The position numbers and the translations under genes were made by a program. The notes beneath the pieces are model-generated. The model was given only the letters and a program-made list of their open reading frames with translations, had not been told where the DNA came from and did not search any database. A stretch of DNA of 64,000 nt from a virus, in the IMG/VR virus record IMGVR_UViG_3300037313_000284, positions 32,001 to 96,000 of that record. One strand, given 5' to 3'. This document shows, piece after piece, positions 11,772-64,000 of the stretch. The first letter of the stretch is position 1. Every line of letters starts with the position of its first letter.

Positions 11772-11819
11772 TGTATCACCTTATAAATGGGTCGGTTACT
11801 GATTGCGAAGTTAGCGCTA

Positions 11820-12539
11820 TTACAGCACCGAAATGTCGAGACCCAGGAACGGGATATCGACAGACGGAGCACTAATAACTCGACCCTTCACGGTCGCGCC
11901 GGTGCCGCCGATTTGGAAGACGCCGTTAGCGCCAACCTTAATGGAGGAAGCCGGAGTCCAGCCAGCCCAATCGGCAGACGGATCGTAGTTGGTCGTGAAG
12001 ACCGTACCTTCTTCGATCACGCCGGTAACGCCGATAAGCGTCGGCAGGGTAGCAAACGTGGTCGGCGAGTTATCACCACCAAGTTGATACAGGTCAGCGA
12101 CAGTCGGGGCGTAGGTATAGGTAACTTCGAGTTCCTTACCCAGGTCAGCGGTGTTCACTTCAATGATGTTATTAGTGACAACACGATATTGACCGGCGGT
12201 GGGAGCACCACCAGCAGCCGTAAGCGCAACGCCCGTAGCCGTATAGATCACGCGCGGGGTACCCACGACGTTACGGTTAAGGACAATGCCCCACTGGCCC
12301 GAAGTAACCAGCACGACCTTAGCGCGGTAAACCAGCGGCGCGAGGGTAGGCGCGGTACGCTCGTTAAGAGCAACGCCAGCGAATTCTTCAGTGTTAGCAG
12401 AACCAACACCCGGCTTCACGGTCGGAACACCGTTAACGCGCACCGCGATCAGGCCAACGCCTTCTTCGATGCTAGTAACGCCAGAAGCGACGTCACGGTT
12501 ACGGGAGACGCGGATGCCGCACAGCGACAGATTAAGCAT
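11820..12539 (-). CDS. Head decoration / minor capsid protein
   Basis: Between scaffold and MCP; beta-rich, FAGVAL motif, ends SAPSVDIPFLGL. Confidence 0.65.
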   Translation of the reverse strand: MLNLSLCGIRVSRNRDVASGVTSIEEGVGLIAVRVNGVPTVKPGVGSANTEEFAGVALNERTAPTLAPLVYRAKVVLVTSGQWGIVLNRNVVGTPRVIYTATGVALTAAGGAPTAGQYRVVTNNIIEVNTADLGKELEVTYTYAPTVADLYQLGGDNSPTTFATLPTLIGVTGVIEEGTVFTTNYDPSADWAGWTPASSIKVGANGVFQIGGTGATVKGRVISAPSVDIPFLGLDISVL

Positions 12540-12586
12540 TTGTGTGCTTCCTACAATTAATAGGGTTTGTGACTAGTTGCTAACGC

Positions 12587-14464
12587 TTAACGCGGAACGA
12601 AAGCGCGAGACTGACGACCGAGTCCAGCAGTTAGTGCAGCAACGTCAATGCGGGGCTTTGCCGGAGGAGCAATAGCCGCCGTCTCAGGAGTCGGCGTAGT
12701 CGCCGGTTCAGCAGGAGCAGCAACCACCGGAACCGCGTTAATAAATTCCGCGTTACCGATAAGTTCAGCTTGCGCCGTACGCACTTCGTCGCTCGCATCC
12801 GCCAATTCCGAAGCTTTCTTGAACATGCGTTCAAGCAACGTCGGCATCGAAAGGATCATGCTAGCTTCAACGATAGCCGCCGGTTGACGGACGCCGTTGG
12901 TTTCCAGCACTTGAGCGAGTTCAGCAGCGACCGGGTTAGTAAAGTCCTTACCGAACATACCCTTCGCGATACCAAGCGCCGCCAGTTCAAGGCATTGCTT
13001 AAAGGTATCAGTGAACGAAGCACGTTCAGCAGCGATTTCGCTAGCCGCAGCCGTTTCTTGAGTCGCAACGCGTTCCGCAATAACCGTCGCGACTTTAGTC
13101 GAATGGCGCAGGATAGAGCCACCGAGTTGAGCCAGAGCAGTTTCACGGTTAGCACCGCTAATAGCAGCACGATACGTGTTACGAATTTCGGAGGGCTTAC
13201 CCCAAAGCGTTTGCACGCCAGCAGAAGCACTTTCCTTACGAAGAACCGCTACCGGTGCGTTATCTTGAATAACGTAGTAGGCAGTTTCTCCGACCGGAAC
13301 GATTTCCGCATCAGGGCTAAGTTCCGCCGGGGTAGTAGCCACATACTCAATAACCGTATCGTCGCTAGCGACGACCGTATTATCAGCAGCAGGCACACCA
13401 GCATCTGCCGCAGGCGCGTCTTCAACCGTAACGGTTTCAGCAGCGACCGGGGCTTCTTCCGCAACTTCAGCCGCAGGGGCCTCAGCAGCGGGAGTTTCAA
13501 TAACTTCAGCAGCCGGAGCGTCAGCCGGGGTATCCACGGCATCAGCGACGACAACATCAGTCACATTAGTATCAACGGGGGCGTCAGCCGCAGGAGCGTC
13601 AACCGCCGTATTGTCGGTTTGCGTTTCAGCAGGCGTAGACATATCGCTCGCCCCTTCTTTGTTTTCATCGACCGATTCAGCAGCAGGCGCGTCAGTAATA
13701 ACTTCAGCCGCTTCTTCCTCGGAGGAATCATCCTCATCGTCACCATCTTCTTCCGAATCTTCGTCCTCTTCGGACTCATCTTCGTCTTCTGACGGATCGC
13801 TCTCATCCATATCCATGACTTCTAACGAGTCACCGTCTTCACTATCTTCATCAGCAGCGAAGTCGTCATCTGAAGCCGTAATAACCGCTTCATCCGAAGT
13901 GTGTTCGTCAATAGTCCGCATAGCTAGAGCGACACTAGCGAGAAGCGCACGACGCGCTTGCGTATTGCTCATGTCGTTTTCCTCAAGCGTGTTGGGATCA
14001 ACTGTGTTAAGCTCCCCAAAGTCGAAGAAATTTGCTAACTCCGACCTAGTTTGCTCATTGGTTTTTGTATCGATAGCGATATCCATCGACACGCCCGAGT
14101 TAACATAGCTAACCGGGACGCCACACATAACACAAGCACCGGGATGCTCATCCGTGATGACGTTTGCCGTCACAGTGTCGCAATACAAATCACTAGAGCA
14201 ATTTGCACACTCACCAATCTTAATAAGTGAATCCACTTTTGGTGGAGCAACATCGTTAGGCTCAAGGTTAGAACCATCAACAGGCGAAAGCGCGCCAATG
14301 GAGCCGACCTTGTTTGACACTACAGGGGCGGTTAGCCCAGCGTCATAGGTAGCAGTAATCACACTGGAAGGTTGATGCCCTGCCGGAACAGCGACAATAA
14401 CTGAGGCCGTTTCTTTTAAAGCTAGCAAACTTCCTAGCGGTTTCTGCGTATTGCGAAGGCTCAC
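12587..14464 (-). CDS. Prohead scaffold/core protein with N-terminal Cys cluster
   Basis: CANC..C..CVMC; long acidic tract; PAA(D/E) repeats; helical C-terminus; AGGAGAGG RBS; upstream of decoration/MCP. Confidence 0.7.
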   Translation of the reverse strand: MSLRNTQKPLGSLLALKETASVIVAVPAGHQPSSVITATYDAGLTAPVVSNKVGSIGALSPVDGSNLEPNDVAPPKVDSLIKIGECANCSSDLYCDTVTANVITDEHPGACVMCGVPVSYVNSGVSMDIAIDTKTNEQTRSELANFFDFGELNTVDPNTLEENDMSNTQARRALLASVALAMRTIDEHTSDEAVITASDDDFAADEDSEDGDSLEVMDMDESDPSEDEDESEEDEDSEEDGDDEDDSSEEEAAEVITDAPAAESVDENKEGASDMSTPAETQTDNTAVDAPAADAPVDTNVTDVVVADAVDTPADAPAAEVIETPAAEAPAAEVAEEAPVAAETVTVEDAPAADAGVPAADNTVVASDDTVIEYVATTPAELSPDAEIVPVGETAYYVIQDNAPVAVLRKESASAGVQTLWGKPSEIRNTYRAAISGANRETALAQLGGSILRHSTKVATVIAERVATQETAAASEIAAERASFTDTFKQCLELAALGIAKGMFGKDFTNPVAAELAQVLETNGVRQPAAIVEASMILSMPTLLERMFKKASELADASDEVRTAQAELIGNAEFINAVPVVAAPAEPATTPTPETAAIAPPAKPRIDVAALTAGLGRQSRAFVPR

Positions 14465-22925: not shown

Positions 22926-23705
22926 TTAACTGTCGCCTAAGTGAAGTAGATGCTCAGGCGACACGTGTGCCGCTGCCCAAGCCGGGGTGGGGTGGACGCA
23001 ACTAAGCTCGAACCCGCGAATGAAATCGCAAATGTAGTGAGCTAAGACCGGACCGCGGTCCGGAGTATTGAAAATGCGCATCGTCCTATTATCAAGGCTA
23101 ATGTGCTCACAACCGTTTTGTGCTTTGGTTGGGCGATGCCCGCACACTGCGCATTCGTAACTACCGACCGAAGCACCCATCGAATAGTGAGAGTATTCAC
23201 CGGTTAGGATGTTATTAGCTAAAACCGGATCACGAGTACGGTCACAGCCATAAAGCGCAACCGCCTTCCACACTTTCTGATTAGTACCAGCTAGCGGAAG
23301 CATGCGGGTATCGAACACCGCGCCCTTAGCGTTAGTCGGGTCATCATTAACGTGATTGAAATGCGTAGGCCTACGCTTCCACGTTTCATAACCCAAGCAC
23401 GCTAGGTCCAGATCGAACCGACCCATGCTAGCTAGTGAGAACGCCACGCCATTACGATTAGGTAGCGCCGTAGGAAACATAATAACCGGAGTGATTACGT
23501 AATCTCTAATGTCCCTAGAGATATTGTATTCAGCGGCGGCGGCTTCCAACCAACCGGTTCCCAATTCTCGACCTAGGTTAGTATCTAGTCCCGCCGTTTC
23601 AAAAGACATTCTGGCACGCGACTCATTGCCCTTAAGAATGTCGTGCATTTCAAATGCTTGTAACCCAGGTTCCTCACAGAACCCTAGTTCGATAGACCTT
23701 TCCAC
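22926..23705 (-). CDS. Prohead maturation protease (HK97/assemblin-like)
   Basis: PNRNGVAF; HFNH; YSMG; CxxC..CEH insert; GFELSCVHPTPA; start reassigned to GTG 23705 (AGGAG RBS, TAATTT motif at 23749-23754 upstream). Confidence 0.8.
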   Translation of the reverse strand: MERSIELGFCEEPGLQAFEMHDILKGNESRARMSFETAGLDTNLGRELGTGWLEAAAAEYNISRDIRDYVITPVIMFPTALPNRNGVAFSLASMGRFDLDLACLGYETWKRRPTHFNHVNDDPTNAKGAVFDTRMLPLAGTNQKVWKAVALYGCDRTRDPVLANNILTGEYSHYSMGASVGSYECAVCGHRPTKAQNGCEHISLDNRTMRIFNTPDRGPVLAHYICDFIRGFELSCVHPTPAWAAAHVSPEHLLHLGDS

Positions 23706-23778
23706 AGTCGCAACTCCTAACCTATGGGCGACGTTTGGTTCGCTTATTAAATTAGCGTTAGGCGGCATTTTAGACAAG

Positions 23779-25257: not shown

Positions 25258-27552
25258 CTACTTAGGCCCGCCGTGTTTATCAGCCCAATCACGCATCATC
25301 TTTGCAGTTCCGATTGCGTCTTCGGGATCATTAGTACCATAGGAAGTAGCCTCACGCCGTTCAGCGCTAGGTAGTTCCTTTTTACTAAACGTCACGATGT
25401 ATTCACCATCGACGACGTTACAGACCAAGCCAAGTTTACGAATTTCTTCCTTCACTTGTGCTTGAGTTAGTGCAGTCTCAACGGCTGCACGTTCGATGCT
25501 ATTATGATGATCGATCAATGCTTCAATCGTGTCAGTTTGGCACCGTCCGGTAGTGCCCCTAGTAACTCCAGGCACCGCACGGTCGAACCAATAACTGTAT
25601 CCGCCGTTGTCTTTAACACAGTCAATTGTCACGCTATTGCGTAAGAGGTACCTAGTACCGTGGATACCAGCAGCTAAGGCTTCTCGCGCAGACTTCTTGA
25701 AATCCTTGAGACTGAAAGGTTGTGGCGCAATTTTCACCACCGCCGTTTTCATATCTTTATAGTGATTAGCAGTCTCGCGAACAGTACCGTCAACCGATTG
25801 CTTAGCTTTCGGTTCTGACTTACCGTCGTAGCCGACCTTAACCGCCATCTTCATTAACTCATCGGAGAAGCGACGCGGCTTCTTACCGTCAAGCATCAAT
25901 GCGTCAGGATGCGCCATCGAGCCCAGCATAGAAGCGATCTTCGCTAACGCTGCGCCGATAGTAACCATGTAGTCAGCTTTGAACTTACCAAGCTTACGTT
26001 GCAGGCCGCACATATCGGCGGTGACTTCAACTTGATAACCGGTACCTTCGTTTTCGTAGGTGTAGGCGATCTTGTACTCAACAGCACCCATGCAGAAGCA
26101 ATAGGTTTTATTAGTAACCTTACCTGCCTTCACACCGACCAACTTACGAAGCTCTTCGCAGTAGTCTTGCAGGGTCTTCTTATCGCCGTCCTTACCGAGT
26201 TCGTCAGCAATGGAATCAAGCAAGCGAAGCACGCGGGTCATATCGTTGTGATTAACCTTGGCGAATTGCTTCAGCATCTTGTTGTAAACCGTCAAGAGTT
26301 TGGCTGATTCCCAACCGCTCTTGCGCTTGACCTTAACGCCCTTGTTGATCGTACCGTAGTGCAACTCCACTACGGGTTTCTTGCGACTTAAATTAATCAC
26401 GATGTGCGCGCCACCTAGGACGCACGTCTCGTTCTCTTTCTTTTTGCCGCCGAGCGCCGCCATCAGGCGTCCCGCGTTGAAAGCCTTAGGCTCTTTCGCG
26501 GTTTCCACCATGTGGTTAATAATACCGTCAACGTGCTCTTTCATGAGCGCGAGTTCGTCTTCGCTCAAGTCCTCTTCTTCGAGCGTGCACTCGCTAGGAC
26601 CGTCGTGAAGCATACCGTCGTCAGCTAGCTCGCTGCCAGACTTGAACTTCCCGATCTTGGTTCCGGTTCGTTTAGCATCTTTTATTAATGCCTTAACAAT
26701 ATCGTCGTAACCCTTAGCGTCGTTCTTCGCGCCCCAAATATCGTCGGCGTGTGTACCGTCCTGATATATTAACATGAGGCCGGGTTCGTCTTTAGTAGGC
26801 ATCTGAATCATGTACGGTAACAACAAATCGTTATTACCATATAGCATGATATAGTCGTAGTCTTCTTTCGAAGCTCTAGAGTGGAACTTGACGGTAATCT
26901 TCAGCTTAGCTTTAGCTAAGGCTGCCAAGATACCTTTTAACTTAGCCCGTGAGGCCGCCGTCTCAACCGAGGCTTCCTCTTCGGAGTCCTCATCGTCTTC
27001 GTCGGTGTTATTATCGAGTTCGTCTAGCTCGTCTTCGTGCTCAACGTCCTCTTCCTCGTCGTCTTCGTCTTTAGCCTTGCCTTTCTTTTTCTTCTTTTTA
27101 GGCTTAGCCTCTTCCTCTTCTTCCTCGTCGTCGGACTCTTCTTCGTCCGAGTTATCATCATCTTCCGCTTCCGCAGAGTCGTCATCTTCATCGGACTCTT
27201 CGTCCTCAGAATCTTCCTCTTCGTCGCCATCCTCTTCGGTGTCTTCTTCACCGTCGAACATATCGGATTCGATGATCTTAATTAGTGCGTCCGACTTGGC
27301 GTCGAGATTGTCTTCATTGAGAGCTTCAGCGAGAGCCTCAAACATACCAATGAATTCTTCTTCGTCATTGGAGTCGAAATTAGTCTCTTCACCACTCACC
27401 ACTAACGTAACGCGGCCACCGGGACGCACGATGATAGTAATAAGGCTCGAACTGTCGATGACGATGTACGCGTAGTTACCTTGTCTGTCCTTGCCGCCGG
27501 TAATGATACCTTGTTTCTCGGCGAGGGCTAAAATTTCAAGGATCACTTCCAT
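25258..27552 (-). CDS. Multi-domain acidic/basic internal head protein (candidate polyprotein)
   Basis: Five compact segments separated by VETAA, VETAK, RETAN, VETAL; long D/E tract with poly-K; start at ATG 27552 after AAGGA. Confidence 0.6.
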   Translation of the reverse strand: MEVILEILALAEKQGIITGGKDRQGNYAYIVIDSSSLITIIVRPGGRVTLVVSGEETNFDSNDEEEFIGMFEALAEALNEDNLDAKSDALIKIIESDMFDGEEDTEEDGDEEEDSEDEESDEDDDSAEAEDDDNSDEEESDDEEEEEEAKPKKKKKKGKAKDEDDEEEDVEHEDELDELDNNTDEDDEDSEEEASVETAASRAKLKGILAALAKAKLKITVKFHSRASKEDYDYIMLYGNNDLLLPYMIQMPTKDEPGLMLIYQDGTHADDIWGAKNDAKGYDDIVKALIKDAKRTGTKIGKFKSGSELADDGMLHDGPSECTLEEEDLSEDELALMKEHVDGIINHMVETAKEPKAFNAGRLMAALGGKKKENETCVLGGAHIVINLSRKKPVVELHYGTINKGVKVKRKSGWESAKLLTVYNKMLKQFAKVNHNDMTRVLRLLDSIADELGKDGDKKTLQDYCEELRKLVGVKAGKVTNKTYCFCMGAVEYKIAYTYENEGTGYQVEVTADMCGLQRKLGKFKADYMVTIGAALAKIASMLGSMAHPDALMLDGKKPRRFSDELMKMAVKVGYDGKSEPKAKQSVDGTVRETANHYKDMKTAVVKIAPQPFSLKDFKKSAREALAAGIHGTRYLLRNSVTIDCVKDNGGYSYWFDRAVPGVTRGTTGRCQTDTIEALIDHHNSIERAAVETALTQAQVKEEIRKLGLVCNVVDGEYIVTFSKKELPSAERREATSYGTNDPEDAIGTAKMMRDWADKHGGPK

Positions 27553-27585
27553 AGCAAGACTATCCTTCAAGAACTCAATTAGAAA

Positions 27586-35976: not shown

Positions 35977-36065
35977 AAGACTAACCTCCTAATCAATAGT
36001 TAAATTAGACTGAAAAGCAAACAACCCCCGCATGATTTCCATGCGAGGGCTGCTGATTTAACTTA

Positions 36066-36889: not shown

Positions 36890-39800
36890 TTACTTAGAAC
36901 CCCGTACAACACCGTTGTAGCTGAGGCTCCAAACACGCTTACCATTGCTCGTTAGCATAAGGCCCTCGTCGGCATCGAACTTAGCCTTGGTGGGATAACC
37001 CAACTCGACGTATTCGCTTTCGGGAGCGTCCTTATAAGGCGACAGAGCAAAGTGATCACTACGAGTCTTACGAACCCACATCGGAGCACCAACTTTGACG
37101 CCTTCAATCGGAGCGCCATTATTAGTAATCAGCGTGATCGTAGCCCGCCCGCAGTTCTTAAGGAAGAACATGAACTCGTCAAAGTCTTCCACAACCGGGT
37201 TGTGCTTTTGCTCAGGCCATTCTTCAATCGTGATATCATCGTCGTCATCGTCGAGGCTGATAGGCTTCTTAGCACCACCAGTCGGACGCGCCGGACGAAC
37301 GTCAGTAATAGTAGCCGCAGGTTTCGTTGGCTTACTAATAGCTGGTAGTTCGATATGACCGCCGTTAATAGTGTCAAACGACGCCAGGAACTCTTCCGGG
37401 TCTTCCAGAATGTCCCCATCGGCAATGATTTTCTTCGCTTCTTTCTTGGCTTCAGAAATATTGCGATAGAACTTCACGCCCATGTCATCGAACTTCTGCA
37501 CCTTCTCGGTGTTCGGAATTCCCTGCATCAGTTTGCCGAGAATGCTTAGCACGTTGAACGGATGCTTACTAATCGAAGCGCACAGGTAGAATTCACCCTT
37601 CTGCACGATTGGGTAGAGGCGGAACGTTTGCGGGTCTCGCGAGGAGGCCCGTGTCGGAACGCGCTTCTGTTCCACTTTCATGAAGTTAGTGATTTCCGAG
37701 AAATCGTACGGCTCGACCTGACGCAGTTTACCACGCGAAGACAGGCCTTGCGCCACACCTTCAATCTCAGCCATGAGATTGCGAGGAATGACGTAGTTTG
37801 CCTTACTAACACGCGCTAAGAACACATCAAGAGCCTTGCGGTTCTTGAACCCAACTCGCGCCATATCAGGGAAAGGCTTGAACCCGTAGCGAGTATAAAG
37901 AGTATCCATCGCGTTGCCTTCAGCGGTATCGTAACCAACGATGGCAAGTTGACCGTTAATAGCGAGAGCTTGAAGAGCCACGGTTGCTTCCGTTTCCTCT
38001 TCTTCGTCCTCTTCCTCTTCGTCCTCGTCTTCGAATTCCTCTTCCTCGATTAACGTATCAATCGGGTCTTCCGGTTCCTCGTCTTCTAGTTCGTCTTCAA
38101 GCCCAAGCAGATCGATATCGTCTTCATCGAAGTCGTCATCGCCAGCCTCGAAATCAGTAAACTCAGGCTCAGGCGTGTTACGCCCGCGCTTGCGCTTATC
38201 TGCCTCTTGGCGTTGCTCGTTAGTAATCGGCTTGTGCTTCGGCATGCGAACCGGAGCGCCAGACTTACCTCTGATCGCGTTAGCTAACGTCTTAGCGCCT
38301 TCCTCATCCATCGGCACGTAAACGCACGTCTTCGGGAGACGAACACGCTTCATCTTCTCGCCCTTAGAAGGCGGAAGGCCGGGGATGCGGATAGTAAGAC
38401 GGTGACCATTACGCAGAATGCCATCAACGATACCAGGACCGAATTCGGTCATCACGTAATCGCCGATTTTGATTTCTACGTTGTCAATAACCGAAGGATC
38501 GTCGTCTTCATCTTCGGGGCCGTCACCTTCCTCGTCGCTATCTTCGTCCTCGTCACTGACGGGCACGGTTAGCGAACGAATGGGCTGCATATCAAACCCC
38601 ATGGGGTTAATAGGCTGGACACCCGGTAGCCACGGAACGTAGCACGACGCCGAACCGGGAATGGCTTCCCCTTCAATCGTCGGCACAACCACAGCCGCAA
38701 CGAAGTCTTTAACGCTTAGCGGACGACCAGCGTCATCTAGTAACGTTTGACCGGTAAGCGACTCAACTTCACGACCAATCTTTTTCGTTTCCTCAAGAGA
38801 CGATTGCTGGAACCAGTTATTATACTTCTTTTGTTGTTCGAAGTATTGGTTCAGCAGTTCCTCGGGGAACGATTGAATGATCTTCATCGACATGCGAACG
38901 GGCGGCAGGATTTTAACGTCGCCCTTAAAGAACGTATTGCGGAAGCTCGGCACGTAACCGAATTCCACCATCGCGTTATTAAACTTCTTCGCTAGCAGAC
39001 GAGCGATACGCAAGTCGTCAATCGTCGGAGCGCCGGAAGGCTTAGTGGCAACGATAATGTCGTAACCAAGGCTATCACGGTTGAACTTACCGAACGGATC
39101 GGGACGGCGGATACGTGCTAACGATTGGGTTTCACCACCCGGCGTCCAGACTTGCTGCATGCGGATGATACGCGAACCCACTTGGAGGTTGTGACCTTCC
39201 GAGATACTAATCTCGTCGGCAACCATGAAGCGGATTTTGTCGTCAGTCTTGAACTGCTCGACCTTATCGAACGCGCCCGCTTGATAACGCACGGAACGCT
39301 TCTTTAGATCGGGCGGCATGTTATCCCAAACGTGCTTACCAACGAACTTGTTGGGAGCCATCAGGATTACTTTGTTGCCAGGATCAGCACGGTAGGTCGG
39401 GGCATGCTCTTTAATAACAGCAAGCTTACCCTTTTCATCCATGTGCGCGTACATAAGATCGTACGCGTACGCTGCCTTGACCGAAATCAGATCGTCAGCC
39501 TCAGGAATAGCGAGTTCCAGCGTTCCAGGCTCGGCTTCTTCACCGTCATTCTTGAACTTGAACTCTTCGTAGACGAACGTGCCGTCCACGAAATCATTAA
39601 ACTGCGTAGGATCGTTGACAAACCGGTCAATAACCGAGAAGTGCTTACGCACCACGCGTTCAATCTTATTGCTGATCGCGGGATCGTCGTCACCGCTCTC
39701 AACTTTTTCCAGATCACCCTTAACCGCCTTGTCGTCTTTGATGCGGCTAATAGCTTTTTGGAACAACAGATTGTAATAACGCGTTTGCAGTTCGGTCATC

Positions 39801-42622
39801 TGCACGCGGTGATAGATTTCCTGCATCTTGGGAAGCATATAATCCCAAGAGCGGCTATCCTTACGGTACACCAGCGAGTATTCACGCATCGCGCCGTCAA
39901 TAGCGTCCGCGTCTTCAGGCGAGCCGATTTGCTTGGCGTTCTTATCACCAAGGAACGCTTCAGCGAAGGCTTCCACGTCACCACCCAGCATAGCCGGGTT
40001 AATCTTTTGCGTTTGACCCACAAGGTCGGTCACGACGTTATTAATCGTGGTACCCGAGGACAGACGCACATATTCCGCTTTAGCGCACAGGCAGAGGAAC
40101 GCTTGCGCCAGACCGGAGTCTTGGTTCTTGATCTTGTGACTTTCGTCACCGCAAACGTAGTCCAACCCAGCGCCCGCGAGGATATCCACGAAAGGATATG
40201 CCTTCAGGGGCTTCGCACTACCGAAGTTATCATAGCTAGATACTTGCTCGTAGCTGGACTTCAGTTCCGCGTCAGTGTGCTCGTTACGCAGCGTATTGTA
40301 GTTAGTAACGATAATCGTGTTGCGCGGCAGATCACGAATGAAAGCGATGACTTCCGCCATCGTCATGTTCATACCGAACGGGTTCATAAGCACGTCACGC
40401 ACGTGCTGATAAGTGAACGGGAATGCGTTCATCTTACCGTTAGTGAACTCGTTGATTTCCGCAACAAACTGTCGCACTAGGTTATTAGGAACCACGACGA
40501 CCGGGCGCTTGATCAACCCTTTGGCTAGCAGCAGGTTAATATCAGCGATGATGCAGTTGGTTTTACCACCACCCGGAGCCGCGCCGATGATAGCAGATTG
40601 CGGCGGTTCGCCACGGTCAACAGCCTGAATGTATTCCGCTTGGTGCGGAAACACAAAAGACATACGCGACGTGTCGATGTTCGGAATAACAATCGGCTTA
40701 CTGCGGTCCAACGAGTCAACGATATTATCGCGCTCATTGGTACGACGCTTTTCGTGGAAAGCCGGGATGTTAACCGTATGCTTAGCCACGATGTAGCAGT
40801 CGGTATCGGCTTCCATGTTATTAAGCACGCCACCTTCAGGCTCGCGCTTGTCACCGGAAGACCAAACCTTCAGTGCAACAGCAGCAATGGCCGCTGCGCC
40901 CTTATTAAGGAAGCTAATAATCTCGTTTTCAGCACGCTCTTGTTCGTCCGTCGTGCCGTCTTGCAAGTCGCCGACCAGACGACGTGCCCACATTTCTTGT
41001 TCGCTATTATAAGCGGTAGCATCACGCACAGCGTACGTGAAGTAAGCCCAATCTTCGAAATCGACCTTCAGCGGGTTGACTTGCGTCGGCGGGATAGCGC
41101 AACCAGACACTAGCGCATTAACTTGCCTATTAATGCTAGCGTCTTTAACAGCCGACATACGCTTGACCATTTCGAAAAGCGTACGACCTTCAACGGACAA
41201 CGCTTTGAAACGATCTCCATTCCATCCGAAACCAGAACCATTAATAATCCCACGCAGAGCGTAAGGATACATCTTGGCAATGGTGATCGGGTCTAGCGCA
41301 CGCGCACCACGAAGGTTCAGGCTACTAACAGTGCCTTCAATCGTGGTGAAAACCATGACTTCGTTATGGTGGTCAACGTACAGCACGGAAGGCGGGAAAC
41401 GGAACTTAGGTGCGTCGCGGTCGCGACTACCTTCCGTCAACTTACTCATATCGATGGCCGAAAGACTTTCGAACCATTCGTTACTAGCGGATTGGTATTC
41501 CGCCATCTTGTTTTCTTTAGGTAGCCGAATGACGCGATTACGACCCGTAATCAAATAACCGTCTTCGTTAGTACGGACCATCGGCACGTAGCCGGTCCGC
41601 TCTTCCTTCTTTCGGTTGCGTCGCGCCATCGCCATAGGCGTAGGCTTACGAGGCTTAGCACGCTTCCACGCGGTAGCCGCACGACCCTTTAGGTCTTGCG
41701 TAAACGTCGCCGTGGCCTTGTCATCCGTAGCGCCCGAAGCCGCACGAATGATCGAGTTAATATGCGTCATGAACATGAACGGCACGAACTCTTCTTTGCT
41801 TTCGCAATAGAGAGTCCACCACGCATAATCCAGCGGAAGGTGCAGTTCAGCGACGATTTCAGCCGCCATCACTACGGCGGAATTGCGTGGCAGTGCGCCG
41901 CTATCGGCGATAGTGTATGGAAGTCCACCGACTTCCGTAATGTAGTTGTTATTACCAAACAGACGCATAGTCAGCGAAACGCCAACGCCCTTCGGCAGCG
42001 TCTTGACGGCTTGGAATTCTTCGGTCTCACGAACGAAGTCTTGCATGTAGGGTGAGAATTCGCCCTTCACTAACTTCAAGAACGTCGCTTGGTCGACAAC
42101 GGACTCTAGGTTGCCATCCTCACCGAACATCAAATTCGGCTTAGTATTACGACCCTCACGCTTGTATTCCGTGGGATGCTTGTAACCAGGAAAGAGTTTT
42201 TGCAGCAGACGCTCTTGATCCGGATCGAACGGATTAATAACCAACCGCGTGCTCATCGGCTTCGCGGAAAGGATCAATCCGTCTTGGCCTTCCTTACGAA
42301 TAGCCACGAACGGGAGACGCGCAAAGGTCGTAGCGACCTTTGCAGGCATTTCGAAACCCTGAAGTGTACCTTTACCCGATGCTAATTGCTGCATCGTGTA
42401 GAAGTTGTCGGTCTTGCTATTAATAGCCGAGGCAATAGCCCCACGTGCTAGCACGTGGTTAGCTGCAATCTCTAAACCGACAATAGCCGCCGCAGCGTTG
42501 CGGAGGTTATTATGGATTTCGACGCGATCCGACTCGGCCTTGTCCGCCGCTTTGTCTTCCCCTCGCGCGTATTCCATATAGCCTTGGTAACCGCCCGTAG
42601 AGAGTAGGGACCTTTTGTACAT
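36890..42622 (-). CDS. Very large SNF2/SF2 helicase-like ATPase, probably virion-associated
   Basis: FPHQ; GAAPGGGKT; VVVP; GDESH; LSSGT; EGHNLQ; QSLARIRR motifs; acidic linkers. Confidence 0.85.
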   Translation of the reverse strand: MYKRSLLSTGGYQGYMEYARGEDKAADKAESDRVEIHNNLRNAAAAIVGLEIAANHVLARGAIASAINSKTDNFYTMQQLASGKGTLQGFEMPAKVATTFARLPFVAIRKEGQDGLILSAKPMSTRLVINPFDPDQERLLQKLFPGYKHPTEYKREGRNTKPNLMFGEDGNLESVVDQATFLKLVKGEFSPYMQDFVRETEEFQAVKTLPKGVGVSLTMRLFGNNNYITEVGGLPYTIADSGALPRNSAVVMAAEIVAELHLPLDYAWWTLYCESKEEFVPFMFMTHINSIIRAASGATDDKATATFTQDLKGRAATAWKRAKPRKPTPMAMARRNRKKEERTGYVPMVRTNEDGYLITGRNRVIRLPKENKMAEYQSASNEWFESLSAIDMSKLTEGSRDRDAPKFRFPPSVLYVDHHNEVMVFTTIEGTVSSLNLRGARALDPITIAKMYPYALRGIINGSGFGWNGDRFKALSVEGRTLFEMVKRMSAVKDASINRQVNALVSGCAIPPTQVNPLKVDFEDWAYFTYAVRDATAYNSEQEMWARRLVGDLQDGTTDEQERAENEIISFLNKGAAAIAAVALKVWSSGDKREPEGGVLNNMEADTDCYIVAKHTVNIPAFHEKRRTNERDNIVDSLDRSKPIVIPNIDTSRMSFVFPHQAEYIQAVDRGEPPQSAIIGAAPGGGKTNCIIADINLLLAKGLIKRPVVVVPNNLVRQFVAEINEFTNGKMNAFPFTYQHVRDVLMNPFGMNMTMAEVIAFIRDLPRNTIIVTNYNTLRNEHTDAELKSSYEQVSSYDNFGSAKPLKAYPFVDILAGAGLDYVCGDESHKIKNQDSGLAQAFLCLCAKAEYVRLSSGTTINNVVTDLVGQTQKINPAMLGGDVEAFAEAFLGDKNAKQIGSPEDADAIDGAMREYSLVYRKDSRSWDYMLPKMQEIYHRVQMTELQTRYYNLLFQKAISRIKDDKAVKGDLEKVESGDDDPAISNKIERVVRKHFSVIDRFVNDPTQFNDFVDGTFVYEEFKFKNDGEEAEPGTLELAIPEADDLISVKAAYAYDLMYAHMDEKGKLAVIKEHAPTYRADPGNKVILMAPNKFVGKHVWDNMPPDLKKRSVRYQAGAFDKVEQFKTDDKIRFMVADEISISEGHNLQVGSRIIRMQQVWTPGGETQSLARIRRPDPFGKFNRDSLGYDIIVATKPSGAPTIDDLRIARLLAKKFNNAMVEFGYVPSFRNTFFKGDVKILPPVRMSMKIIQSFPEELLNQYFEQQKKYNNWFQQSSLEETKKIGREVESLTGQTLLDDAGRPLSVKDFVAAVVVPTIEGEAIPGSASCYVPWLPGVQPINPMGFDMQPIRSLTVPVSDEDEDSDEEGDGPEDEDDDPSVIDNVEIKIGDYVMTEFGPGIVDGILRNGHRLTIRIPGLPPSKGEKMKRVRLPKTCVYVPMDEEGAKTLANAIRGKSGAPVRMPKHKPITNEQRQEADKRKRGRNTPEPEFTDFEAGDDDFDEDDIDLLGLEDELEDEEPEDPIDTLIEEEEFEDEDEEEEDEEEETEATVALQALAINGQLAIVGYDTAEGNAMDTLYTRYGFKPFPDMARVGFKNRKALDVFLARVSKANYVIPRNLMAEIEGVAQGLSSRGKLRQVEPYDFSEITNFMKVEQKRVPTRASSRDPQTFRLYPIVQKGEFYLCASISKHPFNVLSILGKLMQGIPNTEKVQKFDDMGVKFYRNISEAKKEAKKIIADGDILEDPEEFLASFDTINGGHIELPAISKPTKPAATITDVRPARPTGGAKKPISLDDDDDDITIEEWPEQKHNPVVEDFDEFMFFLKNCGRATITLITNNGAPIEGVKVGAPMWVRKTRSDHFALSPYKDAPESEYVELGYPTKAKFDADEGLMLTSNGKRVWSLSYNGVVRGSK

Positions 42623-58846: not shown

Positions 58847-61800
58847 CTAGACTGCGACTATTTCTACCTCGTTAATAGTGGGGTCACCACCACCAGCGCC
58901 AGTAGCCGACGAGCTAGTGCCTACTGCAATCCAAAGTTCCGTGGACAGCGCCGTGAAAGTAAACGACGGATGATCATAAGGCTTCGGAGAGTCGGTAGAC
59001 GGGATGCTAGTATTTAGATACTCACTAGTGATAGCGTTAGCCGATCTAGACGCACCTAATTGCAACGAAGTTGTATTAGTGGTGTTTTGATCGGTAGCGC
59101 CCATCGCTAGCTTAATAGTAGCACGATACGTAACGCCGACAGTAAGCGGCTGTCTTGCGGCAAGGTTCATACGCAGAGTCGGGAAGCGTCCGGTATTAGT
59201 AACTACCGGCTGACCTTTGTCTCCGTAAATGACGCCTTGCGCCACCACAACGGTGTCTTCACCCACGGTCTTAGTCTTAACAAGATCGGGGTTGTGCACC
59301 ACGTTCATCGGCGTCCACGTGCCACCAGTGATTTGCTGGATGGATTCGTTTTGTGCCGAGGTTAACACTTCATTGTAGTATAGTTTGAACGAGGCTTCGA
59401 AACCAGTCTTAATAATCTGCCCGGCGGGTTGTGCAGGACGCGCCGGAACTGTGATCGTATTACTAAGCACTTCGAAACCACCCACCGTGACTTTGGTCCT
59501 ATGCGACGTGTTAAGGTCGGCAAATTCCAAGTCATAGCGAGCCGTTGCAGCCGCTCCACTAATAGCAACAGTGTCGCGTTGGTGTTCGAACGTAAACGTG
59601 CCTGAGATATTACCCGACCACAAACCATAGCCAGTATAAATTTGCGTGTTTTGGTTAAGGTCAATAGCAGAACCAGCTTCGATAAAGTCCGGCCCATCCC
59701 AGCCGCCATAACGACGAACGAATTGTTTCGGAGCTTCTAGGTTGACAACCGCGCCAGAAGCCGCATTCGTAGGTGTGACAGTTAATCTTTCTTGACCACC
59801 CAACTTTTTCGGAAAGTTGAATGACCACGTAGACCAACCAAACGCATTACGACGACGGAACTGCACGTAATACTTACGCGTAGGCAAGTTCGAAACTGAA
59901 CCGGAAGCCGGAGCGTTAGTAATAGTCGTCCACGTCATCTGATCGATGCTATAGCGAACCTGATATTCTAGAATCGGATAACCAGGAGTAGTGTGTCCAA
60001 CGTTCGTTAAGTTCCAGGCGAAACCAGTCGCAGTAGCAGTTAATATGCCTAGCGTAGCAGCCTTATCCGAACCAGCGTTAGTCTTGAACGGTGTAATACA
60101 CTCCGGACGACCTTCCCAAACCGGGAGAGCCATTAGATTTAGTGTATTACGTAATAACGTGTAGAGCGCTTGATATTGCGCAGACAAGAACGTTGCCGTT
60201 CCAGTCTCATACATGTCCATGGTTAGGAATGTCATGTAACGGTCAACGAAAGCAACAGCCGCGCCTAGTTGACCAGCGGTCGCCCAAGTATTACCGCCAG
60301 CTAGAACCGACCAACCATCCCATCCGTTTGGACCGTTTCTAAAGCACCCGATATTAAGCATTTCGGGAACGCCTGCGCCACATGAAGTACCCAGATAGTC
60401 AGCGTCAATCTGACTATCGAAGTTACTAGCAATCGGCGGCGGTTGTGACGGAGTTTGAGTACCCCAATGAGGTATACCCACGTCTTCTGGATAGAACGTC
60501 CTGAAATAAACGTCGTGGTTACCAGGATAATTAGTAGCAATCCCGACGAATTCAACAGGAACGTAGAACGGTTGGTGCGTAGGGTTGCTCTTAATATTTA
60601 AGCATTTCGTCATCAACCCGGACACTTTTTCCCAATAGGCGTGTCCGAATAATTGTACGAATTGTTTATGCCCGTTCCACTGCCCAGCACCCGCAGCACC
60701 ACGGAAGCTTCTATGGTCATAGATATCTAAGTTATTAGCGCCAAACGTCAGCGCTGTAATCCAAGCTGCTTGCGGCGCTGACTGTCCGGCCGCCAAGACT
60801 GCCGTAAGCCACTTAGACCAAGTGATACCGAAGTCCCGTGAATATCCGCTGTCACTAATCTTATCGACCATGAATCTACGACGTTTTTCCGCGTCGTGAA
60901 TCCACCAAGGTTGTAGGGCGGTAAAATATTCTGCGCCCGTTGCGGTAACAGTTGCTAAGTCTGGTGCACCAGACGGCAGAGTGAATCCATTACCCAAAGC
61001 TGCGCGGTTAGCCATACTAACAGTATAGCGAGTGGATTTACTGGTAGCGCTAGGCGAAGGTGCAATCGCGCCGTTCGGCGGCACGGAGCTAACAATATGT
61101 AGCACGCCGTAACCATCGAATATCCGCCATTGCCCAACTTGTGGTGTAGTTAATCCACTTCGACGAATAGATTTAACAACTGATTTCTCGTTACCAATAG
61201 CGATGGCAATCGGGGAACTCTTAGTCGCGGGGTCCACGTTTAGTGTGTGCGTGTACGTAGTCGAAGAAGCACTACCGATGCCGCCTCCGTCAGCCCACAC
61301 CGCTAGCATGCCGTCGAAGCCTTGCGCTTCGCTGCCGTAAACCATCCACGGGTCAATCATCACGCCGTTGGCCCAATACGATTGGCCTGTCATTAGGGTG
61401 GCGCTACCACCCGGAGGGGTCATCGTAAAGTTACCGGAAGCCGTATTAACACCATCTGGTGTAATCTGCGTGATATTAAACACGCGATCCGAGATCGCGA
61501 ACGGCTGACCGTCGGCGTAGCGACCCACAAGCACCGGAACGCTAAAGTAGAAAGTCACATCACCATGAGTGATCGACGATTGTAGCGAAGTGGGCGTCAC
61601 CGAAGCAATAACCGTGACAGCAATTGCAAAATTGGGCGACGTTAGACCGGTAGCGACGCTAGTGGCACGCACGATAACATCGTAAACGTTATTACCGCCA
61701 ACGTCGACGGGGTTTTCGAAATCCTTAGGCGAACCTTGCCACACAAGGTTACTACCGACGATTTGGAAGTTGGCCGCGTCGGCTCCGCCAACGATTGCCC

Positions 61801-61963
61801 AAGTAACGGACTCGTTAGCGGTTAGCGCGTGAGTTAGCGTAGTTTCGTCAACTACGACGACCGTATTCGCCATCGTAACCACAGGGGCGGGTAACGGGTT
61901 ATACGTTAATAACGCCGCTACGCTGGTGCTCATGAAGCACCCGACTTTAGATAGTTGAGGCAT
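58847..61963 (-). CDS. Large fibre/adhesin protein (cadherin-like, helical core, FN3, Ig-like, CBM-like)
   Basis: GGADAANFQI...DFENPVD.GGNNVYDV.VRAT cadherin-like; YQVRYS.D...W...Y.VQ.R..NA.GWS.WS FN3; alternative start 61933. Confidence 0.7.
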   Translation of the reverse strand: MPQLSKVGCFMSTSVAALLTYNPLPAPVVTMANTVVVVDETTLTHALTANESVTWAIVGGADAANFQIVGSNLVWQGSPKDFENPVDVGGNNVYDVIVRATSVATGLTSPNFAIAVTVIASVTPTSLQSSITHGDVTFYFSVPVLVGRYADGQPFAISDRVFNITQITPDGVNTASGNFTMTPPGGSATLMTGQSYWANGVMIDPWMVYGSEAQGFDGMLAVWADGGGIGSASSTTYTHTLNVDPATKSSPIAIAIGNEKSVVKSIRRSGLTTPQVGQWRIFDGYGVLHIVSSVPPNGAIAPSPSATSKSTRYTVSMANRAALGNGFTLPSGAPDLATVTATGAEYFTALQPWWIHDAEKRRRFMVDKISDSGYSRDFGITWSKWLTAVLAAGQSAPQAAWITALTFGANNLDIYDHRSFRGAAGAGQWNGHKQFVQLFGHAYWEKVSGLMTKCLNIKSNPTHQPFYVPVEFVGIATNYPGNHDVYFRTFYPEDVGIPHWGTQTPSQPPPIASNFDSQIDADYLGTSCGAGVPEMLNIGCFRNGPNGWDGWSVLAGGNTWATAGQLGAAVAFVDRYMTFLTMDMYETGTATFLSAQYQALYTLLRNTLNLMALPVWEGRPECITPFKTNAGSDKAATLGILTATATGFAWNLTNVGHTTPGYPILEYQVRYSIDQMTWTTITNAPASGSVSNLPTRKYYVQFRRRNAFGWSTWSFNFPKKLGGQERLTVTPTNAASGAVVNLEAPKQFVRRYGGWDGPDFIEAGSAIDLNQNTQIYTGYGLWSGNISGTFTFEHQRDTVAISGAAATARYDLEFADLNTSHRTKVTVGGFEVLSNTITVPARPAQPAGQIIKTGFEASFKLYYNEVLTSAQNESIQQITGGTWTPMNVVHNPDLVKTKTVGEDTVVVAQGVIYGDKGQPVVTNTGRFPTLRMNLAARQPLTVGVTYRATIKLAMGATDQNTTNTTSLQLGASRSANAITSEYLNTSIPSTDSPKPYDHPSFTFTALSTELWIAVGTSSSATGAGGGDPTINEVEIVAV

Positions 61964-62410: not shown

Positions 62411-62443
62411 GAAAAAGCCCCCGGAGCCTAGGCTCCGGGGGCT
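62411..62443 (-). terminator. Intrinsic terminator (perfect palindrome)
   Basis: agcccccggagcct|aggctccgggggct with T-run on minus strand. Confidence 0.75.
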
Positions 62444-62447
62444 GGTG

Positions 62448-62633
62448 TTAGTCTTTAGGTTTAGTGACGTTGGGTTTTGCACGAACCAATTCTGACATTG
62501 GCGATTCTTCTAGTTGCCGCATGATGCGTTCGCGTTCAGCGTCGGACAACTCCGGCGCGGGTTCGAACCCAAATGAGAACGGTTCGTCGTCTCCCTCGTC
62601 GTCGACTAACATATTGAATACTCGATGATGCAA
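62448..62633 (-). CDS. Small acidic hypothetical protein
   Basis: Between TAATTT motif (62658-62663) and terminator; start uncertain. Confidence 0.35.
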   Translation of the reverse strand: MHHRVFNMLVDDEGDDEPFSFGFEPAPELSDAERERIMRQLEESPMSELVRAKPNVTKPKD

Positions 62634-62697
62634 CGGCTTCTCGCTGAGCCTGACTGTAAATTAATCGAAGTGTCAGGGCTCCGGAGCCAACTCTTAA

Positions 62698-64000
62698 TTA
62701 GTTGGGTAGTGCAGTCTCGGCCCACTTCTTACGCAACACGTCCGCGTATTCGTGAGTGATGTAGAGAGGGAATTCAGGCGTAGGCAACTTACTAACATCG
62801 ATATCGCCGCAGTTGTAAGACAGCGTGATATGCGGGTTAAAAGTTGGGTACTTCCACACGGCCCCTAAATCTTGCGAGAGGTCAAAACGTTCTTGCATGA
62901 TTGGAGAGTCGTACTTAAGCACCAGTACCTTGTGGTCGCCGTCTTCCCAAACTTCCAGCTTGAAAGTATCAGGACTTACTAATAATCCACTACCCGTCAG
63001 CATATAATCGACCGGCTCCCAAGGTTCGCTTAGGGGCTTTTCGCTATAGACCAACGTAGAGTGCATCTTAGTAAAATCGGTAATCGGATTTTGAATCAAG
63101 TTGACCGCAATCCAATGCTCGATTTGACGTTGCGTGCGCTTACTAAACTTCACACCAACGTAGACGCCTTCTGCCGCGACTTCGAATTGGCTAAAATCAA
63201 ACGAAGCCTCTTCGTCGTCCTCGTGTCCACTCTCAGGCAAGATGCCCGCTAGTGAAGCTAGCTTCTCGACATTGTGATAGAGTTTAATACGGGTCGTTTT
63301 CTTTCCTTGTAGAAACTGCCAGAACGCTTTTTGGCCTGGAAGACCCGCGCCCCAATCTTTAGTAACGTACGCAGCGAGCTTACCCGGAAATGGGGTAGCT
63401 TCTTTGCCGCTAGCCACAAGATAAGGACGAATGCGATTAGCAATATTTGCCAAATCACGCGCAGCGCCTTTACGCTGTTTCGCCTTAATCTTTTTAGTGA
63501 TTTCAGCAAGTTCGTGTGCGAAGACATAGTTCAGGAACGCCGCTATGGGTTTCGCCTCGCGCTTACGCACCAGACCTATGTTATTAGTAGTAGCTGTTTC
63601 GACCGGAACGATCATCAGCTTCTTAGTCTTCTCATTCACACCGAGCTTAAGGTTGAACGTCGTCTTACCATCCGCTTCTCTAACCTTCGGCGCTTTGACC
63701 GAACGTTCGGGAGCTTCTGGTTTATCCGGCGCTTTTGCCTTAGGCGGCTCTTCGTCCTTTTTAGTAGGCTTAGAGCTACGTGCTGCGTCTTCTTCCTCTA
63801 GGATTCTAAAGAACGCGTCGAATGCTTCCTTGCGGGTAGCAAACTGTTCGTCCTCACCAACCCCATCGCGGTTGAAGATAATAAACCACTTGCCGGTTTT
63901 GATCACCTTATCGATGATGCCGCCGTTTTCCGGGTCTTTATTAGTAGCCGCGCCGCCGGGCGTTGCTTCGGTCCAACCGGGAGGTAGATCAGATTTAGGT
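62698..64000 (-). CDS. acb1: Multi-domain protein (5'-truncated) with C-terminal anti-CBASS Acb1 (2H phosphoesterase) domain
   Basis: Frame is open to the window edge; C-terminal GVYVGVKFS...NP....MHSTLVYS...LEVW....VLVL..DS....R......GA.....F.PHITLSY...EY...L...W closely follows T4 Acb1 (gp57B) as I recall it, with both HxT motifs. Confidence 0.85.
   Translation of the reverse strand, partial: PKSDLPPGWTEATPGGAATNKDPENGGIIDKVIKTGKWFIIFNRDGVGEDEQFATRKEAFDAFFRILEEEDAARSSKPTKKDEEPPKAKAPDKPEAPERSVKAPKVREADGKTTFNLKLGVNEKTKKLMIVPVETATTNNIGLVRKREAKPIAAFLNYVFAHELAEITKKIKAKQRKGAARDLANIANRIRPYLVASGKEATPFPGKLAAYVTKDWGAGLPGQKAFWQFLQGKKTTRIKLYHNVEKLASLAGILPESGHEDDEEASFDFSQFEVAAEGVYVGVKFSKRTQRQIEHWIAVNLIQNPITDFTKMHSTLVYSEKPLSEPWEPVDYMLTGSGLLVSPDTFKLEVWEDGDHKVLVLKYDSPIMQERFDLSQDLGAVWKYPTFNPHITLSYNCGDIDVSKLPTPEFPLYITHEYADVLRKKWAETALPN

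Follow-up and report, generated by a model that had tools for sequence, protein, structure and literature searches.

How does an enzyme otherwise known as a free-standing protein of about 150 amino acids (aa) come to form the C-terminal module of a 1249-aa phage protein, and in what form would it meet the signals that it is expected to destroy? The question is raised by a locus at the end of a 64,000-nucleotide stretch of DNA (the window) from the virus record IMGVR_UViG_3300037313_000284, which corresponds to bases 32001–96000 of a 140,864-bp viral contig (G000:C1; CheckV completeness 68%). The enzyme is Acb1, which degrades the messengers of CBASS (antiphage signaling based on cyclic oligonucleotides), and the gene is g109, of which the window contains only the 3' third on the minus strand (62698–64000; aa 817–1249 plus the stop codon, with the listed open reading frame, 62698–63999, open at the window edge). 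The protein fits the pattern of polyvalent proteins, since it combines several unrelated domains, a zincin, and effectors that are swapped between close homologues; its Acb1 end lies between segments, predicted to be disordered, that carry a tripeptide of the E-T-A or E-V-A type, which recurs near the N-termini of head proteins encoded by the same genome. All features of the gene given below lie on the minus strand.

The C-terminal module is an Acb1 2H phosphodiesterase with an intact catalytic tetrad. Its 152 residues (aa 1093–1244; 62716–63171) match the Pfam family Acb1 (PF23474) with an E value of 3.7e-31 and 108.2 bits, against a cut-off of 27, over model positions 1–143 of 144, and the homologues labeled P0003, P0004, and P0007 match the same family. 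In the sequence alignment with the solved Acb1 chain 7t26 (E 6.8e-15) both HxT motifs are in register: H1129-S-T1131, within MHST (63055–63063), aligns with the first HxT of the solved protein and H1206-I-T1208, within PHIT (62824–62832), aligns with its PHITLSYN stretch. The HxT/HxT tetrad has been defined in the T4 enzyme as H44, T46, H113, and T115 (Hobbs et al. 2022, PMC9117128). For the fold comparison we used an AlphaFold model of aa 895–1249, the mean predicted local distance difference test (pLDDT) of which is 78. This model superimposes on FBB1 Acb1 (7t27) with a VIA Z score of 19.1 and a root-mean-square deviation of 1.7 Å over 139 of 140 residues, and on 7t26 with a Foldseek TM score of 0.90, while the VIA runners-up are a phage phosphodiesterase (9q2y, Z 14.7) and a phosphoesterase of the next unrelated family (4qak, Z 10.7). 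The module thus shares Pfam family, tetrad, and fold with the characterized Acb1 proteins of T4 (gp57B) and FBB1 (7T26/7T27), at about 33% sequence identity. An earlier reading of this DNA by a model that saw only the letters and their open reading frames (the original prediction) had assigned the last ~155 aa to Acb1 on the strength of the two HxT motifs, and had proposed profile and structure comparison with Acb1 as the check; both comparisons bear the assignment out. The same region also matches phrog_755, a family that carries the label "RNA ligase" in PHROGs. The module should cleave CBASS-type cyclic oligonucleotide signals through the metal-independent HxT/HxT mechanism.

What precedes this module became visible once the neighboring DNA was joined to the window. 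The upstream domain that the original prediction had seen running off the window is real, and the upstream sequence that it wished to have retrieved yields a single gene of 1249 codons for amino acids (L002:698–4447, equivalent to window positions 62698–66447), which extends 2.4 kb beyond the window and has a SprT-like zincin at the N-terminus of its product. From there towards the C-terminus follow a helical region, a winged helix, a domain of about 70 aa, a basic α/β domain, and Acb1. The zincin motif HEMVH (aa 83–87) and a downstream HH pair (aa 105–106) are invariant across the family alignment; the Pfam SprT-like family PF10263 scores 25.1 bits with the query, just under its cut-off of 25.6, and exceeds the cut-off in the homologues P0003, P0004, P0009, P0010, and P0032 (25.7–42.7 bits). 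The winged helix (aa ~729–806) has many fold matches of the MarR/PadR type. The next domain (aa 824–891; 63775–63978) is modeled as a small β-sheet with a helix, carries the signature LPPGWTE...GGIID...W.IF, and matches no Pfam family; its beginning is reminiscent of methyl-CpG-binding domains. A Lys/Pro/Glu-rich linker that is predicted to be disordered (aa 893–920; 63688–63771; pLDDT <50, model residues 549–576) separates it from the basic domain (aa 929–1066; 63250–63663), which consists of three strands followed by helices and is predicted with a pLDDT of 84–97.

This basic domain shows the highest conservation in the family, the invariant alignment columns being clustered within it, and is also present at the C-terminal end of P0010 and P0032, two further proteins led by SprT. 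It contains 26 lysine and arginine residues versus 9 aspartate and glutamate residues in 138 aa, a net charge of +17. The original prediction of a basic helical domain upstream of Acb1 is therefore correct as to charge, but not as to where the domain begins, which had been placed just after the motif VETAT. The structure models put VETAT (aa 949–953; 63589–63603) in a loop between two strands of the basic domain; since it lies inside a well-predicted folded domain (aa ~929–1066), we have rejected it as a module boundary. At this position in relatives only E950 is invariant, the tripeptide reading ETA, EKS, EKA, or ESA. Fold searches with the basic domain by Foldseek and VIA gave no informative match (the wide VIA search returned helical-hairpin entries at Z ~5), nor did a feature search of the ESM Atlas give a usable one. 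Foldseek against PDB and BFVD with aa 345–1075 retrieved matches for the winged helix only, none for the helical, small, or basic domain, and a MuF-like fold was absent from these results.

When 1.84 billion cluster representatives were searched exhaustively with HMMER, only six full-length clusters of this family were recovered, which have a core of about 1070 aa in common and differ in their C-terminal ends. The gene studied here (P0002) and P0003 end with Acb1. In P0004 the end is formed by a small module, Acb1, and three further modules, so that Acb1 is internal; in P0009 it comprises two unnamed stretches, an ART-PolyVal domain (PF18760), and a module shared with P0004 and P0006; P0006 has two unnamed modules; and P0005 has nothing beyond the core. 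Two genes downstream of P0005, on the same contig, lies a separate Acb1 gene of 321 codons (P0007; L005:14541–15503, plus strand), the product of which has a 54-aa leader, the Acb1 domain with ETA on both sides, and an extra C-terminal module. P0007 is a natural split form of the Acb1 fusion and, like P0004, departs from the stand-alone architecture of known Acb1. The additional C-terminal modules of P0004, P0006, and P0009 are named by neither PHROGs nor Pfam, and at least four unnamed modules lie between ETA-type motifs in these relatives. A D-H-[DE]-G-R-H-R stretch within the additional modules recalls motifs of the ParB type.

The distribution of the separate parts is much broader than that of the whole. 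Most of the 198 clusters found with E<=0.001 match only the stretch of aa 824–891, a domain which occurs in over 100 other clusters (P0011–P0153), either alone (67–100 aa) or within proteins of up to ~4900 aa, including giants of 3000–4900 aa that carry MuF_C or DarA_N together with InPase. A tblastn search of GenBank phages with the whole protein matched 1243 records through the Acb1 part only, the core being found in no cultured relative; among the 40 matches listed of these 1243, Acb1 lies in short separate genes such as 57B. Scanning IMG/VR with the family alignment returned isolated SprT-like or Acb1 pieces and no full-length relative, and a word-based search aimed at longer proteins that contain this Acb1 returned the query alone, missing even the known P0003, so that it provides no measure of the frequency of the fusion. 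In its architecture the family resembles the polyvalent proteins that Iyer et al. (2017, PMC5512222) described from phages and conjugative elements, which are likewise large and multidomain, have a zincin-like metallopeptidase, and swap effectors between homologues. It also shares domains with polyvalent proteins of the ART-PolyVal, MuF_C, and DarA_N kinds.

If Acb1 is a swappable module, how is it joined to its carrier? On the N-terminal side there is an acidic linker, predicted to be disordered (aa 1073–1092; 63172–63231; pLDDT <50, model residues 179–198), which ends with FEVAA (aa 1088–1092; 63172–63186); on the C-terminal side there is the tail AETALPN (62701–62721; pLDDT <50, model residues 346–355), with AETAL at aa 1243–1247 (62707–62721) and ETA at 62710–62718. 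The bracketing of Acb1 by FEVAA and AETAL, as originally predicted, is thus present in the sequence and falls on both sides in segments of predicted disorder, which are candidate cut sites just before and just after the enzyme. If the chain were cut after E1089 and E1244, the resulting fragment would correspond to residues 2–142 of the 144-residue solved Acb1, with four additional residues at the N-terminus; the ends of stand-alone Acb1 nearly coincide with those of this expected fragment. The junctions homologous to FEVAA read FEFAE and LEIAS, one relative's protein stopping there, while Acb1 is followed by WAETA in P0004 as well, with further modules beyond, and by NETAA in P0007.

The punctuation of modules by E-[T/V]-A, which the original prediction had proposed from this one protein, is indeed clearer in P0004, P0009, and P0007 than in the protein studied here. 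P0004 has ETA at position 1533 before Acb1 and at 1694 after it, and then at 1875 and 2050; P0009 has it at 1369, at 1691 before the ART domain, and at 1832 after that domain; in P0007, ETA at 49 and 204 brackets Acb1. In P0004 and P0007 these tripeptides lie directly at the limits of the Pfam Acb1 match, and in P0009 they are located at or close to those of ART-PolyVal. Altogether, the variable ends contain 10 ETA in 2208 aa versus 0.83 expected (~12-fold, p 2e-8), and the family cores contain 7 in 7990 aa.

The same tripeptide is found in the head proteins of the phage. ETA occurs 28 times in the proteins of the whole genome versus 15.5 expected (1.8-fold), E[TVI]A overall being hardly enriched, and 22 of these 28 occurrences fall in 11 proteins encoded between the capsid gene and the polyvalent gene. 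It is present at aa 63 of the major capsid protein (MCP), at aa 60 of the head protease, where it just precedes the PHROG-aligned catalytic domain (64–279), and at aa 41 of the portal. Its clustering is significant in g058 (5 ETA, p 2e-5; 11 E[TVIL]A, p 1e-8), g091 (3 ETA, all three kept in relatives), and g069 (4 ETA). The head protease has no match among PDB sequences or in Pfam; it owes its identity to its PHROG name and could be T4 gp21-like or of another type.

With regard to expression, the polyvalent gene is the last in the unit g111-g110-g109, which is flanked by terminators. A hairpin terminator of 16 bp and a CTAATTTAAT motif precede g111. On the other side, a promoter-like TAATTTA motif (62657–62663) lies 25 nt before g108, a 61-aa acidic open reading frame without family match (62448–62633) which has a counterpart of 48–59 aa at the same place in relatives; beyond it there is a strong intrinsic terminator (62416–62443) with a stem of 12 bp, including 10 G-C pairs, and a T run. 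The genome contains 16 copies of TAATTTA, 11 of which are intergenic although such DNA makes up 5.8% of the genome, and all 11 lie 25–68 nt upstream of a start in the matching orientation. The motif precedes the portal unit, g094, g095, g096, g099, g100, g107, g108, and g111 (examples, in window numbering, are at 36002, 51070, 55614, 62384, 62657, and 67252), and a variant, TAATTTC, precedes the capsid unit; σ70-like TTGACA/TATAAT pairs are found instead before the minus-strand genes further along (window ~77000–96000). The polyvalent gene therefore shares the regulatory class of the head genes, a class that is probably late. This makes plausible the late expression that had been originally predicted, the terminator-bounded unit standing behind the same motif as the portal unit and a motif near-identical to that of the capsid unit. 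The surrounding gene order, SbcD-like, Toprim, small genes, S74-like, a gene for ~110 aa, and the polyvalent gene, is conserved in relatives. The S74-like gene, g111, encodes a stand-alone 145-aa protein with the Peptidase_S74 domain of tail-fiber intramolecular chaperones (L002:4788–5225, equivalent to window 66788–67225), which two relatives (L005 and the P0004 contig) have kept in this position, two genes upstream of their polyvalent gene.

These observations could be brought together as follows, along the lines of the late synthesis, packaging, excision by the head protease, and pre-formed delivery against CBASS in the next host that were originally predicted. The gene would encode a polyvalent counter-defense protein of the phage, the variable end of which here consists of a single Acb1 module; the flexible linkers with E-T-A or E-V/I-A that join its modules would most likely be protease sites; the protein would be made alongside the virion proteins and taken into the prohead, where the head maturation protease would cut it; and Acb1, released as a fragment whose extent, ~155 aa from V1090 to E1244, is almost that of the stand-alone enzyme, would be delivered along with the DNA. 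We lean towards packaging and cutting by the head protease because MCP, protease, and portal have the tripeptide near their N-termini and further proteins of the head region contain clusters of it, and towards production together with the virion proteins because the promoter-like motif is shared with the head-gene units. Taken as a whole, the account of a polyvalent carrier whose Acb1 module is cut loose at ETA-type linkers, with the head protease as the likeliest agent once the prohead is loaded, and is delivered with the DNA seems to us evenly poised between right and wrong. A bolder extension, which we put forward tentatively and with less than even confidence, is that E-T-A constitutes a portable cut tag for the head protease, by means of which swappable counter-defense enzymes are loaded on one carrier, freed separately, and enter the next host. 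We would then have, for the first time, a pre-formed Acb1 that is injected and a head protease that dices an array of effectors instead of trimming propeptides.

Several observations weigh against this account, in which cleavage, packaging, and activity are all deduced. The studied protein taken alone has only 2 ETA (p 0.17) and 5 E[TV]A (p 0.005), and three of the latter five lie inside folded parts; in P0003 the Acb1 junction reads FEFAE and lacks E[TVI]A. The ETA at aa 63 of MCP is unconserved, an MCP of 93% identity having ELA, and in other MCPs QE[LVIA]A occurs at a distance of a few residues, the stretch being variable and followed by a conserved helix; given this variation among relatives, the motif of the head protease is at best E-[T/L/V/I]-A, looser than ETA. 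A further ETA, in g099, we have rejected as a site because relatives have MTA there. Neither Pfam nor Foldseek finds MuF, portal, or another known packaging domain in the core, no N-terminal targeting peptide is evident in the 1249-aa protein, and the absence of the core from the cultured phages searched by tblastn means that there is no virion proteome to consult. The protein, moreover, bears a protease domain of its own, the SprT-like zincin. Finally, the T4 prohead protease has been found to trigger a CBASS operon late in infection (PMC12991175, a 2026 preprint), and consequently an Acb1 made late in the producing cell would suffice without any injection.

The last two points lead directly to different explanations. 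The modules could be released by the SprT-like zinc protease of the protein itself, either before packaging or after entry, with the head protease uninvolved. This would account for the invariance of HEMVH and HH in all members of the family, every one of which has SprT-like Pfam matches, and for the presence of the zincin, alone among the domains, in each of the eight SprT-led relatives, P0010 and P0032 among them; zincins are also the commonest hub domain of polyvalent proteins, for which autoprocessing has been proposed, as in DdrB of P1 (PMC5512222). Self-processing would leave unexplained, however, why the tripeptide is found near the N-termini of MCP, head protease, and portal, and why g058, g069, and g091 contain clusters of it. 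P0007, too, has ETA on both sides of Acb1 without a zincin of its own, even if it might be cut in trans. Proteases of the SprT/Spartan type, furthermore, are not known for tripeptide specificity. On balance we regard self-processing as unlikely. An equally modest probability may be granted to the idea that nothing is cut or packaged: the protein would be a large cytoplasmic product of late infection, in which Acb1, tethered to domains resembling DNA-binding ones, mops up CBASS signals in the producing cell at the point where head assembly and protease activity set them off, ETA being simply a favored linker. T4 needs Acb1 and Acb2 to mask the late triggering of CBASS by its prohead protease (PMC12991175), the promoter class held in common with the head genes would suit such a product, the Pfam and Foldseek searches revealed no packaging domain, and N4 vRNAP and ArdC are zincin-bearing polyvalent proteins that stay uncut (PMC5512222). 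A three-residue motif that is kept at nearly every junction, in linkers that cannot otherwise be aligned, nevertheless suggests that something recognizes it, and the C-terminus of stand-alone Acb1 aligns exactly where ETA follows in the fused forms. Since Acb1 has lid residues at its C-terminus (PMC9117128), a free C-terminal end may matter. Polyvalent proteins as a class are also linked to virion delivery through their MuF_C and DarA_N partners.

Far less probable than either is the suggestion that the 2H module acts on RNA ends, 2'-5' oligoadenylates, or other nucleotides rather than on CBASS signals. Enzymes of the 2H superfamily differ widely in function, matches to LigT, Usb1, and viral 2'-5' phosphodiesterases do appear lower in the fold lists, the PHROGs label still speaks of RNA ligase, and an RNase role was considered by Iyer et al. 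(PMC5512222). But the best matches are by a wide margin those to characterized Acb1 (Z 19.1 versus 14.7 and 10.7), and Pfam Acb1 is matched over its full length (E 4e-31) whereas LigT_PEase reaches only E 0.19.

How much of this is new? The enzyme and the protein class are already known, and their pairing was foreseen in general terms in 2017: 2H phosphoesterase modules are reported in polyvalent proteins, fused to MuF or portal, and are predicted to degrade defense nucleotides, the polyvalent proteins themselves being predicted to be injected (PMC5512222). That paper predates the name Acb1, and our literature search found no article linking "Acb1" with "polyvalent". The 2017 predictions of 2H modules in polyvalent proteins and of their anti-signal role temper the novelty of the present case, which consists of a family led by SprT, of Acb1 by name as a swappable module in both fused and split forms, and of a junction motif shared with head proteins. 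Unlike the 2H fusions reported in PMC5512222, the family has no MuF or portal part; a short conserved junction motif such as the present one is not described in the passages of that paper considered here. SprT-like peptidases have been noted by the same group in a subgroup of jumbo phages including PaBG (PMC7824862).

The closest parallel for the proposed processing comes from the giant phage SPN3US, the ejection proteins of which are cut by the head protease after Glu at an AXE motif (PMC10052503). There and in phiKZ, loading into the prohead, cutting at a motif shared with capsid, portal, and protease, and subsequent ejection are proposed as they are here, except that the cuts mostly remove N-terminal propeptides of single-function proteins (PMC10052503) whereas here they would divide a multienzyme array into modules. 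Judged as prohead-protease substrates are, by a motif shared with head proteins, our protein has ETA flanking Acb1 and the MCP, protease, and portal of its phage have it too, the MCP site varying in relatives and the whole correspondence being known from sequence. T4 offers other precedents, with IPI* and Alt being internal proteins processed by the head protease and IPI* a pre-formed, injected anti-restriction protein. Delivery against CBASS itself is exemplified by the ejectosome protein Gp15 of ICP3, which inhibits the CBASS effector CapV (bioRxiv 10.1101/2025.07.23.666291) and so likewise counters CBASS as a virion protein delivered at DNA entry; Gp15, however, blocks the effector stoichiometrically, without degrading the signal, and is a structural ejection protein, not modular cargo. 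Studies of Acb1 have dealt with a free enzyme that is produced in the course of infection. Should it be fused, delimited by motifs, and possibly borne by the virion, degradation of the signal could precede phage gene expression, and models of the timing between CBASS and phage would have to change; the rule of ETA-type linkers, moreover, could help in finding further counter-defense enzymes.

The remaining genes of the window set this locus in context. The contig belongs to a jumbo phage and comes from a soil metagenome; no RNA is listed among the sequencing runs, and the DNA there derives from a soil metagenome which may be the source sample. MCP relatives were found on contigs of 204–206 kb, and the portal has a distant resemblance, at about 32–34%, to its counterparts in jumbo myophages, among them Pseudomonas PaBG and Rhizobium RHEph12. 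Near the portal gene, with only g078 (254 aa) and g077 (68 aa) between them, is the gene for a 1910-aa protein (36890–42622, minus strand) that has a SNF2-type helicase core and weakly matches a PHROG of giant size labeled "DNA methyltransferase". This protein has the look of a second polyvalent protein, of the DarB-like kind, and shows no enrichment of E[TVIL]A (2 sites, p 0.88). Downstream of the polyvalent gene, preceded by a 135-aa phrog_3362 protein and the TAATTTA motif, lies the gene of a 1038-aa protein without family match (58847–61963, minus strand), for which position alone would allow the guess of a receptor-binding or fiber role. The capsid-gene unit is headed by g058 (12587–14464, minus strand; 625 aa), which gives the impression of a scaffold or core protein cleaved into several parts. 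Between it and the capsid gene two open reading frames overlap on opposite strands (11787–12560), of which the 239-aa frame on the minus strand (11820–12539) suits the operon better than the 257-aa frame on the plus strand. Two genes upstream of the head protease gene (g067; 22926–23777) there is g069 (25258–27570, minus strand; 770 aa), which has ETA at aa 203, 356, 599, and 698, three times as VETA, and may be another processed protein of multiple parts.

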